From Escherichia coli (GTDB lineage Bacteria > Pseudomonadota > Gammaproteobacteria > Enterobacterales > Enterobacteriaceae), in the NCBI RefSeq assembly GCF_044647545.1, contig NZ_CP172818.1: a stretch of 64,000 nucleotides of DNA, one strand, 5' to 3'. The translations under genes and the position numbers were made by a program. Under the pieces are notes generated by a model. It did no database searches. It was not told the origin of the DNA and saw only the letters and a program-made list of their open reading frames with translations. This document shows, one piece after another, positions 2,338 through 8,728 of this stretch; position 1 is the first letter of the stretch, and each line of letters opens with the position of its first letter.

Positions 2338-3741
2338 TTAAACAATGCGAAACGCATCGACTAATACACAGCGACGCAGACGGACAAACGTCCGCGCGCT
2401 GGTTACCCCTTCACCGGTTGGCGTGGTGATGGTCATCGTGGTCCAGCCTTCCCCGCCCAGCCCCAGCCCGGCAATGCACGGTCCGTTCTTAACGAAAATG
2501 CTGGTATCAATGGCATTCGCCATCTGGTTCATGTTCTCGATATTGCGCGAGTGCATTGCCGCCGTGTGGTGGCAACCGCCTTCCAGTTTCACCGCCAGCG
2601 CAATGGCATCCGCCACGTTGGCGACGCGCACGACGGGCAGCACCGGCATCATCAGTTCAGTCACAGCAAACGGATGTTCTGCGGTGGTTTCTACAAACAG
2701 CAGTCGCGTTTGTTCCGGAACTTTAAGGCCGATTGCCGCCGCGATTTTCGCCGCATCGCGACCAACCCAGTCACGGCTGACGATGCTTTTTCCGCGCTCG
2801 TCGATATTTTTCAGCAACACCGGTTGCAGCTGCTGCGCCTGCTCTGCGGTCAGTTTCACCGCGTGCTGGCCTTCCATCAGACGCATCAGTTCATCGGCTA
2901 CGCTATCCACAACAATCAGTACCTTTTCGTCGGCACAAATGATGTTGTTATCGAAAGACGCGCCTTTGACGATGGACTGAGCAGCACGGGCGAGGTCGGC
3001 GGTTTCATCCACCACTACCGGCGGGTTGCCAGCGCCTGCGGCAATCAGACGTTTATTGGTGTGTTTACGCGCCGCTTCTACTACCGCTTCGCCGCCGGTC
3101 ACCACCAGCAGGCCGATGCCCGGAAACTTGAACAAACGTTGAGCGGTTTCAATATCCGGATTTGCCACAGTAACCAGTAAGTTTTCCGGCCCGCCTGCGG
3201 CAACAATCGCCTGGTTGAGCAGCGTGATCGCCCGCTGGGAGACTTTTTTCGCCGCCGGATGCGGGGCAAAAATGACGCTGTTGCCCGCGGCAATCAGGCT
3301 GATGGCGTTATTAATGACGGTTGCCGCCGGGTTGGTGGACGGAGTTACCGAAGCCACCACGCCCCAGGGCGCGTTTTCAATTAAAGTCAGGCCGTTGTCG
3401 CCAGTCAGCACTTGCGGAGAGAGGCACTCAACGCCTGGTGTGCCGCGCGCCTGAGCGACGTTTTTGGCAAATTTATCTTCAACGCGCCCCATGCCGGTTT
3501 CACTGACGGCAAGTTCCGCTAAATCTCTGGCGTGTTTTTCGCCTGCTTCACGAATGGCAGCAATGGCTAACTGGCGCATTGCCACGCTTTTTAACCCTTG
3601 CTGGGCGACTTTGGCTGCCGCAACGGCGTCATCCAGGGACGCGAAAACGCCCATCTCATGAACGGCGGCGGGCGGCGTGTCACTGCTTTGCATTTTCAGC
3701 AGTACCGCTTTCACCACCTGTTCAATATCCTGTTGATTCAT
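2338..3741 (-). CDS. eutE: CoA-acylating acetaldehyde dehydrogenase EutE
   Basis: 467-aa ORF, aldehyde dehydrogenase family, operon position. Confidence 0.93.
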   Translation of the reverse strand: MNQQDIEQVVKAVLLKMQSSDTPPAAVHEMGVFASLDDAVAAAKVAQQGLKSVAMRQLAIAAIREAGEKHARDLAELAVSETGMGRVEDKFAKNVAQARGTPGVECLSPQVLTGDNGLTLIENAPWGVVASVTPSTNPAATVINNAISLIAAGNSVIFAPHPAAKKVSQRAITLLNQAIVAAGGPENLLVTVANPDIETAQRLFKFPGIGLLVVTGGEAVVEAARKHTNKRLIAAGAGNPPVVVDETADLARAAQSIVKGASFDNNIICADEKVLIVVDSVADELMRLMEGQHAVKLTAEQAQQLQPVLLKNIDERGKSIVSRDWVGRDAAKIAAAIGLKVPEQTRLLFVETTAEHPFAVTELMMPVLPVVRVANVADAIALAVKLEGGCHHTAAMHSRNIENMNQMANAIDTSIFVKNGPCIAGLGLGGEGWTTMTITTPTGEGVTSARTFVRLRRCVLVDAFRIV

Positions 3742-3752
3742 GATGTTCTGCC

Positions 3753-4040
3753 TTATTTGTGGAAAATGACCTGACCGCCAGACACCACCTCATCGACAAT
3801 GCCAATCACGCACAGATCGACCGGTGACGTTTCGCTTTTATGCGCCTGGCGGGCGGAACTGCCACTCACCAGTAACACCCACTCCCCGGTTCCCGCGCCA
3901 ATATTGTCGATGGCGACGGCGCATTGCCCGTCAGGATTACCTTGTGGATCAATCATTTCCACCATCAGCAATTTGTCATGCGCCAGTCCGTGATGGCGTA
4001 CGGTACAAACAATTTGTCCAGTGACGACTGCCAGTTTCAT
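3753..4040 (-). CDS. eutN: microcompartment vertex protein EutN
   Basis: 95-aa ORF, EutN/CcmL family sequence, operon position. Confidence 0.9.
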   Translation of the reverse strand: MKLAVVTGQIVCTVRHHGLAHDKLLMVEMIDPQGNPDGQCAVAIDNIGAGTGEWVLLVSGSSARQAHKSETSPVDLCVIGIVDEVVSGGQVIFHK

Positions 4041-4146
4041 ACCCGCCTCCGTGGCGTATTTCAGGTAAAAGCTCCCCCTACCCTCCGCAGAAGGTAAAAT
4101 GAAAAAGGAGAGAGCGTGACGCCCGAATCGACGTCACACAGGGTGA

Positions 4147-4440
4147 TTACAGGTTGCTGCTATCGCCTTTCAGGCCGATCGGGAAGACTTCTTCCAGGTC
4201 GCCGTGCGGACGCGGGATAACGTGTACAGATACCAGCTCGCCGATACGCTGTGCCGCTGCAGCACCTGCGTCGGTCGCGGCTTTACAGGCTGCAACATCA
4301 CCACGAACCATGGCAGTACACAGGCCGCCGCCAATCTGCTTAACACCAACCAGCTTGACGCGCGCAGCTTTCACCATCGCGTCAGAAGCCTCAATCAGTG
4401 CAACCAGGCCCCGGGTTTCGATCATTCCTAATGCTTCCAT
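4147..4440 (-). CDS. eutM: microcompartment shell protein EutM (BMC domain)
   Basis: Track ORF is 111 aa; the internal ATG at 4440 is preceded by GAGGA and gives the 97-aa BMC protein [11 protein letters not shown]... Confidence 0.88.
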
Positions 4441-4478
4441 TGTGCTTTCCTCTTTATCAGGGTCCAGAACGGGACCGT

Positions 4479-5495
4479 TCATTCAACCAGTGTTTGTAAA
4501 CTGCTTTCGCGGTTCACTTCTGTCTGACGCGGCACAGCTGCCACCAGCGCCAGTTCGATAATTTCCTGCACGCTACAACCACGAGAGAGATCGTGCATCG
4601 GCGCGGCAAGTCCTTGTATCAATGGCCCGACGGCACGATATCCGCCAAGTCGTTGTGCGATTTTGTAGCCAATATTTCCTGCCTCCAGCGACGGAAAAAC
4701 CATCACATTGGCTTTGCCCTGTAACGGGCTGGCTGGCGCTTTTTGCGCCGCCACTTCCGGCACGAAGGCGGCGTCAAACTGCAACTCGCCATCGACAACC
4801 AGCTTTGGTGCGCACTCACGGACGATTTCTGTCGCCTGCTGGACGTTGGCAACGCAGGGGTGACGGGCACTACCGTTGCTGGAAAACGACAGCATCGCCA
4901 CGCGCGGTTCTTCTCCGGTGATGGCGCGCCAGGTTTCGGCGCTGGCAAGCGCGATATCCGCCAGTTGTGCCGCCGTCGGCTGCGGCACCACGCTGCAATC
5001 GGCAAAGCCCAACGCCGGACCGCTGTACTGTGGCAGCATCAGGAAAATGGATGAGAGCGTTTTACAGCCTGGCTGCAAGCCGATAATGCGTAATCCGGCA
5101 CGCAGCACATTCGCCGTGGAAGAGAGGTTGCCCGCGATACAGACATCCGCTTTGCCGGCGCTGACCATTGCGGCGGCGAACATCAGCGGATCGGTAAGTT
5201 TTTCCAGCGCATCCGGCGGCGTTTTTTCGCCCGCGCGGGCCAGCCAGCGATGAGCAAATTCTTCCCGCATTGCGAGGTTGCCATGCGGATCAATCACCTG
5301 TAGCCCGTCCATCGCCACGCCATGACTGAGCGCAAACTGACGAAGTTCAAACGGATTGGCGACCAGAATGGGCGTTGCCAGACCTTGTTGATGTAAATAT
5401 TGCGCAGCTTTCAGCACACGTTGATCTAACGCATCCGGAAAAACTACTCTGGCGGGCGCTCGCAACGCCAGTTCACGACAACGTTTAATAATCAT
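4479..5495 (-). CDS. eutD: phosphotransacetylase EutD
   Basis: 338-aa ORF, Pta family, operon position. Confidence 0.93.
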
Positions 5496-6295
5496 TGCGT
5501 TTCCCCCAGTCGTTGTTGGATCTGCTTCACCGTTAGCGGTTGTTTCGCTACGCTCAGGATCATCATCACGTAGACCGTGCTCGAAAGGCGGTTCAGCGCC
5601 TGCAAAATGTCCGGGCGTAATACTTCAAAGCTGCGGGTGATAAAGACCTGCGCCGCTACGGTTTCGGTTTCCCGCACTTTGGTGCGTAGCAGATTTAGCA
5701 ACGCCGCATCGCGCCCGTGGCTGGCTTCCGGCACCAGATGATCGTGGTCGAGATAACGCAGCGGCTGGTGAGAAAGCCGATGCAGATCTTCGTCAGAAAG
5801 CCCGACAATCGCCTGGCAGGCCAGCGGTTCCCCCAGCGCATCGGCACGCATAATGTTGCCAAGACGCGAACGGATATCCGCCAGCCACGGCTGCCACGGT
5901 TCCGCCAGTTCAATTTGCAGCCACACTGCCAGCGCAATGGTGCTGTCGAGAACCGCGCGAAAAGCCAGGCGCGGATCGCTTTTGGCAACCATTTTTTCCG
6001 CCGACAGGTGAGTCAGCGTATCCGGCTTTTTTGCCACCGGCTGGCGGCACAGTTCGCAGCACGCCTGCGGATGTTCATCGCTACTGGTAAGCCCGTGAAC
6101 GGGCTGCGGCTGCTGCTGTTCATCGTCAACAAACAGGCGGCCCTGCTCGTCAATAAACTTGATGCGCAGATGGCGGCTTTCCAGTAACTCCCGGGCAGAG
6201 GGCGTCAGGCGACTGTCCGCAGGGAGATGGATCTCTGCGCCTTCGCTGAGCGTATGGTTCGCTCTTAGCCATGCTTCGGTGATGAAATCTTTCAT
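5492..6295 (-). CDS. eutT: ethanolamine utilization cobalamin adenosyltransferase EutT
   Basis: 267-aa ORF, 4-nt overlap with eutD start (ATGA coupling). Confidence 0.9.
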
Positions 6296-6993
6296 AGGGA
6301 TTGCCAGTTAGCCGGCCAGGCGACATACAGGAATTTCACGCTGGATGTCGTACCAAATTCGATACTGGAGCCTTTCGGGATAAACATCACATCGCCCGCT
6401 TTGGCGATCATAGTTTCGCCTTCGTGGCGAACATGCAGCTCCCCTTCCAGCACCATGTCGATTTCGTCGTAGTTCAGGGTCCACGGAAAGAAGGCGTTCT
6501 CCCACTGCATAAAACCAGCGGCCATACTGCTGCCGTCGTCTCCGGTCACGAGATCAGTCAAGCCTACGCAGTGCGGTTCCGCGCCATCGAAACGACCAAA
6601 CTTGACGCTGCTGCCATCAATCACTTTGATGCCGCCTTTGCCGGTCACCGATTTGAAACTCGGCTGCATTGCACCCTGCTCCAGTGACTGTTTTTCCTTC
6701 ATCACTTTTTCCATCAGCTGCGCGACCAGGCTTTCGGTAAACTGGCCTTCCGGTAGCTGGGCGATGATGGTTTCGCGGATGCGCTGGCTTTCGGTTTTAT
6801 CGGCTGGCACGCTGGCGGGAACGGACGTCGTTACCGCAGTCGATTCATCACATTCGGTGATGGTAAAACCCAACAGATCAGCCACTTCACGAGCTTCCGG
6901 GGTAATAATGCTGGCGCGCAGAACCACGGACATTGCCAGTTCGCCGCGCGCGTGTGCTTCACGAATATCATTCGCTGTGATGAGTTTTTTCAC
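6292..6993 (-). CDS. eutQ: ethanolamine utilization protein EutQ (cupin)
   Basis: 233-aa ORF, operon position. Confidence 0.9.
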   Translation of the reverse strand: MKKLITANDIREAHARGELAMSVVLRASIITPEAREVADLLGFTITECDESTAVTTSVPASVPADKTESQRIRETIIAQLPEGQFTESLVAQLMEKVMKEKQSLEQGAMQPSFKSVTGKGGIKVIDGSSVKFGRFDGAEPHCVGLTDLVTGDDGSSMAAGFMQWENAFFPWTLNYDEIDMVLEGELHVRHEGETMIAKAGDVMFIPKGSSIEFGTTSSVKFLYVAWPANWQSL

Positions 6994-7447
6994 CTGCTTC
7001 CTCCTGTTTGGTGAGAGATGCCAGATAATCCACCAGTTGCTGCACGCTTTGCGGGTCGTGGCTGTTTAGCTCGAAAATCGGCTCTTCGAAGCCCGTCTCA
7101 AGCAATAACTTTCGCGTTGCGGCGACGTCAGCATCTGGCATGTCCGTTTTACTGATGACGGCGATTTGCCGTTTGCTGACGCCAATATCCAGCAACCCGG
7201 CAGGCAACCGACTTTCCGGGTCATTCGCGCCGTGGACATAGATCAGCATGTCCACATCCTGTAGCGTGGTAATTAAGGCGTGATACCAGCGGGGATGGCT
7301 AAAATATTCACCCGGCGTATCAATATCGCCCTTATCATTAAATTCCACGGCCTGTGTTTTTCTGGCGAGGGTATAATTCCCCTGCAACGCATTAAATAAC
7401 GTTGTTTTTCCTGCCCCGACGGTACCCACAAACGCAATTCGTTTCAT
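6968..7447 (-). CDS. eutP: ethanolamine utilization P-loop protein EutP
   Basis: 159-aa ORF with Walker A GTVGAGKTT; 3' end overlaps eutQ start by 26 nt. Confidence 0.9.
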   Translation of the reverse strand: MKRIAFVGTVGAGKTTLFNALQGNYTLARKTQAVEFNDKGDIDTPGEYFSHPRWYHALITTLQDVDMLIYVHGANDPESRLPAGLLDIGVSKRQIAVISKTDMPDADVAATRKLLLETGFEEPIFELNSHDPQSVQQLVDYLASLTKQEEAGEKTHHSE

Positions 7448-7459
7448 GAATGCCTCGTA

Positions 7460-7795
7460 TTAACTTTTGGTCATTTCACAAAGCGTATAATTTAATAAGC
7501 GTCCTAAACCACTGACGGTTTGTGATAACGCTTCTTCTACTGCGCCCACCGAGCCATAAATCACCAGCGCGCCGCTAAAACGGTCGAGAAAACCGATATG
7601 CACATCGGCGGCTTTCAACGCTAAATCACCGGCGATCATCGCCGTTTCTCCGGGAGTTAGCGTCATAATGCCGATTGCGCCCGCATCCGGAACGCCGATT
7701 TTCTTCGCCAGTTCCTCGCCGGGATGCGCGATGAGATGCGCCAGTGTGACCTGTTTACCGGGCACAAATTCCTGAATGATGCGTTCTTTATCCAT
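7460..7795 (-). CDS. eutS: microcompartment shell protein EutS
   Basis: Track ORF (135 aa) begins at a TTG; the ATG at 7795 gives the 111-aa protein [10 protein letters not shown]... Confidence 0.88.
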
Positions 7796-7958
7796 GAGTC
7801 GCCGCCTGTGAAAAACTTTCGTGTATCGTGACAATTTTTCGTCAGAGTAAATAACAAAATTCGGCAAGCGCGTTTAAAAGGTGAGGTAGATCACTAAGAA
7901 TGGAGAGATATTTTATGTTAAGAAAAAAAACATACATTGTATGAATATAAACGGGAAC

Positions 7959-8699
7959 CAATAAGTTTTGTTTATCATATTATATAGACTTCTTTAATTT
8001 TTAATAATTAGCAGAATACATATTTAATTACTGTTGTATTCTAAAAATATTTATCTTCACCCCATTTAAAATAATCTAGGATTTTATTCAGAAAATAAAA
8101 AAGACCCGAAAAAATCCTTCCCCCCCAAAGGCGCTAATTCATCCATATTAACTCAAGACTTCATAGAAAATTTTCTTAACCCCCATATAGAGCCTCTCTA
8201 AGCCTATTATCCTTTTATTATCAAATCTCTAACCCATCTTTACCTATCTGCAAAAACACACACAAACCACTATTTTATTTTTTTTAAAAACGGAAAAAAG
8301 CATAAGGAAACGAAACAAATGAGAAAAATTTCAAAAAAAAAGAAAAATAGAAAAAAAATAATAAAAAAAACGAAAGCGAATACGAAAGGAAGAAAAAAAA
8401 AAACAAAAAATTTCAAATTCCCCAACCCACAGCCACAAAGCAAAACGAACAAACCTGAGGAACTTAAAGAAAAAGAGTATATGAAACTTAAACTAACACC
8501 TAGCTAACTATAGTAACCGAAGAAAGAACACAAAAAAGAAACAAAAATACAAAAAAAAACTAAACAAAAAAAAAAGAAAATCATAAAATTTTTATCTCAA
8601 CATAAAAAAAAAATTGAACAAAAAAAAAATGACCCCAAAAAAAACACCCCAAAAAACAACAAAAGGAACACAACAAAACAAACAAAAAACACCCCAACA
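7959..8699. other. anomalous non-coding low-complexity block: left part AT-rich, right part (about 8281-8699) strongly A-rich/C-containing on + strand; putative foreign or artefactual insertion
   Basis: Hand tally of 8521-8700: A about 68%, C 19%, T 8%, G 4%; A-runs of 9-11 nt; only poly-Lys/poly-Phe pseudo-ORFs; eutS-maeB spacer is 978 bp here. Boundaries approximate. Confidence 0.6.
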
Positions 8700-8728
8700 C
8701 CACAGGAAGGGAGAGGAATCAGCTAAAC

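Follow-up and report, generated by a model that had tools for sequence, protein, structure and literature searches.

Translation starts of the shell-protein genes eutM and eutS in the Escherichia coli ethanolamine-utilization operon and their over-long open reading frames

The shell proteins EutM and EutS of Escherichia coli are represented by solved chains (PDB 3I6P and 3MPW for EutM and 3I96 for EutS), by NCBIfam models (NF012018 and NF012012, respectively), and by genes b2457 and b2462 of strain K-12. The short starts of both genes are thus already known, from RefSeq, the K-12 annotation, UniProt-derived names, and the PDB. A circularly permuted BMC fold has been described for EutS and for PduU of the propanediol microcompartment. 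PduU (3CGI) is the next-closest solved relative of EutS (E ~1e-35), and PduA, from the same microcompartment, holds that position for EutM (E ~1e-34); these proteins differ in being paralogues from another operon, and no pdu genes are present in the stretch examined here. The window, a 64,000-nucleotide stretch of E. coli DNA, carries on its minus strand, at positions 2338 to 7867, the 5' half of the E. coli ethanolamine-utilization (eut) operon, with the gene order eutS-P-Q-T-D-M-N-E. Its 97-residue EutM is identical to E. coli EutM over all 97 residues, and eutM is flanked by eutD and eutN, just as it is in K-12; its 111-residue EutS is identical to E. coli EutS over all 111 residues and is encoded by the first gene of the operon, again as in K-12. 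The proteins themselves therefore do not differ from those described, and only the open reading frame calls do, with 14 extra N-terminal codons for EutM and 24 codons added from a TTG for EutS.

The initial annotation had attributed these additions to the longest-open-frame rule, which gave EutM 111 amino acids and EutS 135, and had proposed internal ATG codons as the canonical starts. Both calls were reproduced in a mechanical list of open reading frames (eutM at 4147 to 4482, minus strand, from an ATG; eutS at 7460 to 7867, minus strand, from a TTG), and both internal ATGs, at 4440 (preceded by GAGGA) and at 7795, could be read on the minus strand, yielding products of 97 and 111 amino acids. 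Two of the eight eut genes in view are affected; for the remaining six (eutE, eutN, eutD, eutT, eutQ, and eutP), longest-frame lengths equal RefSeq CDS lengths. Simple arithmetic, which counts three of the 64 codons as start-type and three as stops and assumes equal codon frequencies, indicates that about half of all true starts will have an in-frame ATG, GTG, or TTG upstream before the first stop, so the eutM and eutS extensions are what chance gives, and the over-long frames are an ordinary artefact of the rule. The over-extension was placed in the six-frame track, where it is indeed seen, but it is not confined to it and recurs in deposited records and gene calls: deposited records of EDL933, CFT073, and Shigella flexneri carry the 135-residue EutS, and at least 1000 contigs have a 111-residue EutM call. 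RefSeq gives CDS lengths of 294 nt for eutM and 336 nt for eutS, both in K-12 MG1655 and in FDAARGOS_497, the strain nearest to the window (99.8% identical). Over-long forms are nevertheless still present in public databases, and automatic callers continue to produce them in Escherichia; shell-assembly models or expression constructs built from such records would carry a nonnative tail of 14 or 24 residues, although the significance is small and a matter of annotation hygiene.

When the long frames were aligned with the BMC shell families, full-length matches began at residue 15 of EutM and residue 25 of EutS. The equivalog model NF012018 (cut-off, 133 bits) scored 212 bits, with model positions 1 to 97 of 97 falling on residues 15 to 111 of the long EutM frame, and the subfamily model NF012012 (cut-off, 123 bits) scored 246 bits, with positions 1 to 111 of 111 falling on residues 25 to 135 of the long EutS frame. 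The same boundaries emerged from the solved chains: residues 1 to 97 of 3I6P and 3MPW are identical to residues 15 to 111 of the long EutM frame, residues 1 to 111 of 3I96 are identical to residues 25 to 135 of the long EutS frame, and the alignments with PduA (from query residue 14 or 15) and PduU (from query residue 26) begin at or beside the internal methionines. PF00936, the BMC domain (cut-off, 24.5 bits), was found once in the long EutM frame, at residues 17 to 92 with 101 bits, and scored 45.1 bits on EutS. The assignment to EutM is supported by domain score, by identity with the solved chain, and by a position between eutD and eutN in which the order of the frames matches the RefSeq annotation; that to EutS is supported by the BMC domain together with the full-length EutS-specific model and by identity with the solved chain.

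On this comparative footing, eutM is almost certainly translated from ATG 4440 and eutS from ATG 7795, with the longer frames spurious; solved chains, NCBIfam models, RefSeq, other genera, substitutions within Escherichia, and Shine-Dalgarno pairing agree in identifying the internal ATGs as the canonical starts. We infer that no longer isoform of either protein is made in vivo. The solved chains, however, came from recombinant constructs designed from the annotated starts; the structures demonstrate folding and assembly of the short forms but do not show these to be the sole forms. For the two E. coli genes, our literature searches turned up no N-terminal sequencing of the native proteins, no profiling of translation initiation, no mapped transcription start, and no discussion of the EutM or EutS start codon.

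In a set of 63 related loci, every full-length match retains the internal ATG. For eutS, in 26 of the 27 enterobacterial loci from outside Escherichia, reading upstream in frame meets a stop before any start codon, and in 20 of the 27 a stop stands one codon upstream of the ATG; for eutM, most such loci have an in-frame stop four codons upstream. These are the usual distances from the conserved ATGs in Salmonella, Citrobacter, and Klebsiella. The spacer between the eutD stop and the eutM ATG measures 36, 37, 38, 39, 40, or 41 nt according to genus, so the frame of the eutM extension is not preserved. The 111- and 135-codon frames would thus arise only because, in Escherichia, an upstream ATG or TTG happens to be joined to the true start by a frame free of stops. 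Within the genus, five sequences were compared codon by codon: 64 of the 65 variable codons of the two coding sequences are synonymous, and 7 of the 11 in the two extensions change the amino acid. Taken separately, amino acid changes account for none of the 26 variable codons in the eutM coding sequence and 2 of 4 in its extension, and for 1 of 39 in the eutS coding sequence (38 being synonymous) and 5 of 7 in its extension. The eutM extension frame is open in all five sequences; the eutS extension is interrupted by a TGA in one lineage, Escherichia sp. MOD1-EC7003. By these substitutions, the pattern in both extensions is that of noncoding DNA.

The eutM coding sequence, specifying a BMC-H shell protein, occupies positions 4147 to 4440 of the minus strand (97 codons plus stop). 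A Shine-Dalgarno sequence, GAGGA, can be read at 4448 to 4452 (minus strand), with a 7-nt spacer to ATG 4440, and is kept across genera as (G)AGAGGAA or CGAGGAA. The spurious 14-codon extension (4441 to 4482, minus strand) consists of the eutD-eutM spacer and the eutD stop, TGA, at 4479 to 4481; eutD (pta), the upstream gene, encodes a phosphate acetyltransferase of 338 amino acids (4479 to 5495, minus strand; 1017 nt in RefSeq). Both a conserved inverted repeat and the ribosome-binding site lie within this spacer. The eutS coding sequence, also for a BMC shell protein, extends from 7460 to 7795 on the minus strand (111 codons plus stop) and is preceded by a weak Shine-Dalgarno-like AGGCGG at 7802 to 7807 (minus strand), which in Citrobacter reads GGAGGCGG. 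Its spurious 24-codon extension (7796 to 7867, minus strand) is probably noncoding, being either untranslated leader or promoter sequence of the operon's main promoter. In the literature, EutR is described in general terms as acting at P1, the promoter upstream of eutS. A promoter and terminator scan of positions 7700 to 8400 returned no sites, and the eutS transcription start could not be placed from the sequence. As a separate observation, an unusual A-rich stretch of 0.6 kb lies upstream of eutS (8103 to 8718); a search of complete E. coli genomes with low-complexity filtering gave no match to it, and metagenome contigs lacked an exact 30-mer taken from it.

A stop/start overlap of the ATGA type can support termination-reinitiation, and ATG 4482, the start that gene callers often pick, overlaps the eutD stop in just this way. 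In Escherichia only, ribosomes finishing at the eutD TGA might restart there and make a minor 111-residue EutM beside the 97-residue protein, a proposal in keeping with the open frame, whose ATG lies 14 codons upstream in each of the five Escherichia sequences (15 codons in Klebsiella oxytoca), and with the many contigs on which this form is deposited or called. We nevertheless consider it very improbable. ATG 4482 is composed of the last A of the final GAA codon of eutD and the TG of the TGA stop; the upstream ATG is present only where eutD ends in GAA-TGA, of which it is a by-product. In Salmonella, most Citrobacter, and most Klebsiella, it either lies in another frame or is cut off by a stop. 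No Shine-Dalgarno sequence serves it (anti-Shine-Dalgarno duplex, -2.2 kcal/mol, versus -6.0 kcal/mol at ATG 4440), the conserved inverted repeat begins 6 nt past it, and the strong Shine-Dalgarno sequence and ATG of the short form follow 42 nt downstream; half of the few variable extension codons, moreover, alter the amino acid in a gene whose protein is otherwise unchanged.

A longer EutS, of 135 residues from TTG 7867 or 124 residues from TTG 7834, has in its favor an open frame and the 135-residue form in the early annotations of the three strains named above, and its probability appears close to negligible. TTG seldom serves as a start codon, and neither TTG is preceded by a Shine-Dalgarno sequence (duplex energies of +1.7 kcal/mol at 7867 and +0.1 kcal/mol at 7834, versus -5.8 kcal/mol at ATG 7795). 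The stop within the extension in one Escherichia lineage, its amino acid-changing codons, and the stop immediately upstream of the ATG in 20 related loci also argue against it. Upstream of the eutS ATG, K-12 and the window have just 118 nt in common, a stretch that must hold both the promoter and the EutR site; TTG 7867 is therefore likely not even transcribed. Initiation at the two internal ATGs thus remains the preferred reading.

The inverted repeat in the eutD-eutM spacer, GGTCC-cgttct-GGACC (4461 to 4476, minus strand), is a candidate RNA hairpin that starts 2 nt after the eutD stop and ends 20 nt before the eutM ATG. Across Enterobacterales, it takes the form GGTCC-N5-6-GGA(C/T)C, placed 18 to 23 nt before the eutM ATG, with loops that vary. 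The arms are invariant throughout 23 genomes, although only 10 of 90 third-codon positions of eutM are invariant in them and neighboring synonymous sites are largely randomized. This conserved element explains the conservation of DNA inside the eutM extension. Variation in the arms amounts to a one-sided change from G-C to G-U with no compensatory pairs, so RNA structure is not claimed. Folding of the E. coli spacer is no more stable than that of shuffled sequences (z = 0.11), and the minimum-energy fold in the window uses pairing other than the inverted repeat. An Rfam scan of positions 3900 to 8400 (E <= 1) matched no family, indicating that the repeat is not a curated RNA, and no eutD-eutM hairpin was found in the literature. 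A protein-binding site was also considered and set aside: the arms are 4 to 6 nt apart, a variable distance that would be more in keeping with a hairpin loop than with half-sites at a fixed spacing. We suggest, tentatively and with less than even confidence, that the repeat could be a functional intercistronic RNA hairpin that helps to set a high output of EutM, the major shell protein, relative to the upstream enzymes; it may act, for example, as a processing or stability barrier or as a translation-coupling element. The repeat offers a small, cheaply testable lead on shell-protein stoichiometry within the operon.

The eut genes form a compact row on the minus strand, as is evident both from the mechanical ORF list and from a reading of that strand: eutE (2338-3741), eutN (3753-4040), a 111-aa ORF holding eutM (4147-4482), eutD/pta (4479-5495), eutT (5492-6295), eutQ (6292-6993), eutP (6968-7447), and a 135-aa ORF holding eutS (7460-7867). 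Of 5426 complete E. coli genomes, 5415 contain window positions 4000 to 8000 by megablast (top match, 99.8% identity). The names eutN, eutM, pta/eutD, eutT, eutQ, eutP, and eutS are those that RefSeq assigns both in the best hit and in K-12 MG1655, which makes this stretch the 5' half of the E. coli ethanolamine utilization operon.

The initial annotation held that the longest-ORF calls for eutM and eutS, of 111 aa from ATG 4482 and 135 aa from TTG 7867, are over-extended; both ORFs were found as described, and translation from the internal ATGs proposed in their place, at 4440 and 7795, yields the predicted 97 and 111 aa. The GAGGA motif said to precede ATG 4440 was read at 4452-4448, with a spacer of 7 nt, and a weaker AGGCGG (7807-7802) lies upstream of ATG 7795. 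That the internal ATGs give the canonical BMC-domain proteins was borne out by solved chains and NCBIfam models, which begin exactly at these positions. Residue 1 of the E. coli EutM chains 3I6P and 3MPW aligns with long-ORF residue 15, and all 97 residues from there are identical; residue 1 of the E. coli EutS chain 3I96 aligns with long-ORF residue 25, and all 111 residues are identical. The alignment to BMC shell protein families that had been suggested was run, and both models matched end to end from the internal methionine: NF012018 (EutM) aligned over positions 1 to 97 of 97 to long-ORF residues 15 to 111 at 212 bits (cutoff, 133 bits), and NF012012 (EutS) aligned over positions 1 to 111 of 111 to residues 25 to 135 at 246 bits (cutoff, 123 bits). 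In the long EutM ORF the Pfam BMC domain begins at residue 17, and RefSeq gives coding sequences of 294 nt for eutM and 336 nt for eutS in both the nearest strain, FDAARGOS_497, and K-12. By every membership test applied, both proteins correspond to the EutM and EutS already known from E. coli.

The over-extension finding is thus correct but ordinary, an annotation error of a known type that is already settled in the reference annotation. It is expected by chance because start-type and stop codons are equal in number; by our own arithmetic, approximately half of true starts should have an in-frame ATG, GTG, or TTG before the first upstream stop. For the remaining six eut genes in view, the longest ORF and the RefSeq coding sequence are of equal length. 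Among the eut proteins listed for K-12, only EutM (NP_416952.2) and EutS (NP_416957.4) carry accession versions above 1, which would fit a past revision of these records. Over-long forms nevertheless persist in public protein collections: the exact 111-aa EutM is called on at least 1000 contigs, and the exact 135-aa EutS is deposited as AAG57571.1, AAN81437.1, AAN44008.1, and AAP17823.1, for which the organisms given by the database are Shigella flexneri and E. coli. From their accession series we take these to be EDL933, CFT073, and Shigella flexneri records. The 90%-identity cluster containing EutS (111 aa) also contains many EutP proteins (159 aa) and is represented by one of them, which looks like an oddity of database clustering rather than biology.

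Comparative evidence for the short starts is direct, as is that from the databases. A scan for EutS with one genome per species gave 63 loci, all including the eutS 5' region and usually the eutD-eutM junction as well, and the internal ATG was kept in every locus with a full-length match. Reading upstream from the eutS ATG, a stop is reached before any in-frame start in 26 of the 27 enterobacterial loci from outside Escherichia (Salmonella, Citrobacter, Klebsiella, Pseudocitrobacter, and Pluralibacter MAGs), and 20 have TGA one codon before the ATG; upstream of eutM, most have an in-frame stop four codons before the ATG. In the loci compared, an in-frame upstream eutM ATG occurs only in Escherichia and K. 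oxytoca. The upstream ATG is composed of the last A of a eutD GAA codon and the TG of the eutD TGA stop, and it is gone where eutD ends in GTA-TAA or GTT-TAG. The distance from the eutD stop to the eutM ATG is 36, 37, 38, 39, 40, or 41 nt according to genus, and the length changes are therefore not multiples of three. Variable codons in five Escherichia sequences were synonymous only in 26 cases and amino acid changing in none within the eutM coding sequence, against two and two in its extension; the corresponding counts for eutS were 38 and 1 in the coding sequence and 2 and 5 in the extension, with Escherichia sp. MOD1-EC7003 contributing a TGA to the 5. Pairing with the anti-Shine-Dalgarno sequence was -6.0 kcal/mol for ATG 4440 and -5.8 kcal/mol for ATG 7795, compared with -2.2 for ATG 4482, +1.7 for TTG 7867, and +0.1 for TTG 7834.

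Translation of eutM very probably starts at a strong ribosome-binding site of its own, 38 nt beyond the eutD stop. For eutS, the first gene, it very probably starts at ATG 7795, within the leader that follows the EutR-activated P1 promoter; P1 lies upstream of eutS and is the site of EutR action (PMC8565329). K-12 (L066) and the window are 100% identical only over 7790-7912, leaving 118 nt in common ahead of the eutS ATG, and strain-specific sequence starts beyond 7912; the shared promoter and EutR site must therefore lie within these ~118 nt, a stretch that overlaps the spurious eutS extension. Given this limit on the promoter, TTG 7867 is likely not transcribed. We see almost no prospect that a 135-aa EutS is made. 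Termination-reinitiation at the ATGA overlap could in principle generate a minor 111-aa EutM in Escherichia, but ATG 4482 lacks a Shine-Dalgarno sequence and is not conserved, substitutions in the extension behave as noncoding, and a strong competing start lies 42 nt downstream, so that we consider such a product very improbable. The absence of a longer isoform in vivo is something we infer only, because the literature searched yielded no native N-terminal or initiation-profiling data for EutM or EutS.

Conservation of the DNA in the eutM extension has a noncoding cause, an inverted repeat, GGTCC-cgttct-GGACC (4476-4461, minus strand), that follows the eutD stop and comes before the ribosome-binding site of eutM. 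It begins 0 to 3 nt past the stop (2 nt in this strain), ends 18 to 23 nt before the eutM ATG, and recurs at the same position, in the general form GGTCC-N5-6-GGA(C/T)C, in the related loci L002 to L046, L061, and L064. The arms are invariant in 23 genomes, as GGTCC...GGACC or as GGTCCC...GGGATC (Morganella, Serratia, Pluralibacter, Entomohabitans, and a Telmatospirillum MAG), while the loops vary in sequence and length; only 10 of 90 eutM third-codon positions are invariant in the same genomes. Together these features suggest a selected hairpin, but the repeat is a candidate intercistronic RNA hairpin only: no compensatory double changes occurred in the arms among the genomes compared, the E. 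coli eutD-eutM spacer folded no better than shuffled sequences (z = 0.11), and an Rfam scan gave no family at the repeat. Many non-Escherichia genera have a C-rich CCCCUU tract just 3' of the repeat, for which pairing with the Shine-Dalgarno sequence of eutM, GAGAGG or AAGAGG, is predicted (L006, L011 to L014, L019, L025, L028, and L030); the window sequence, CCCTGATAAAGAGG, is without pairing of this type.

The spacer between eutS and maeB measures 906 nt in the window versus 292 nt in K-12, and in the nearest strain it is ~2.3 kb and includes two glycosyltransferase genes. The stretch of note here is 7913-8718, above all the 0.6-kb core at 8103-8718, in which A makes up 54% of the bases and forms fifteen runs of at least 6. 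Searched with the low-complexity filter on, the 5426 complete E. coli genomes gave no match to the core, and metagenome contigs did not contain an exact 30-mer from it; the core may be an assembly artifact or a degenerate remnant. Toward the core from the eutS side, short G+C-containing blocks present in FDAARGOS_497 drop out of the window.
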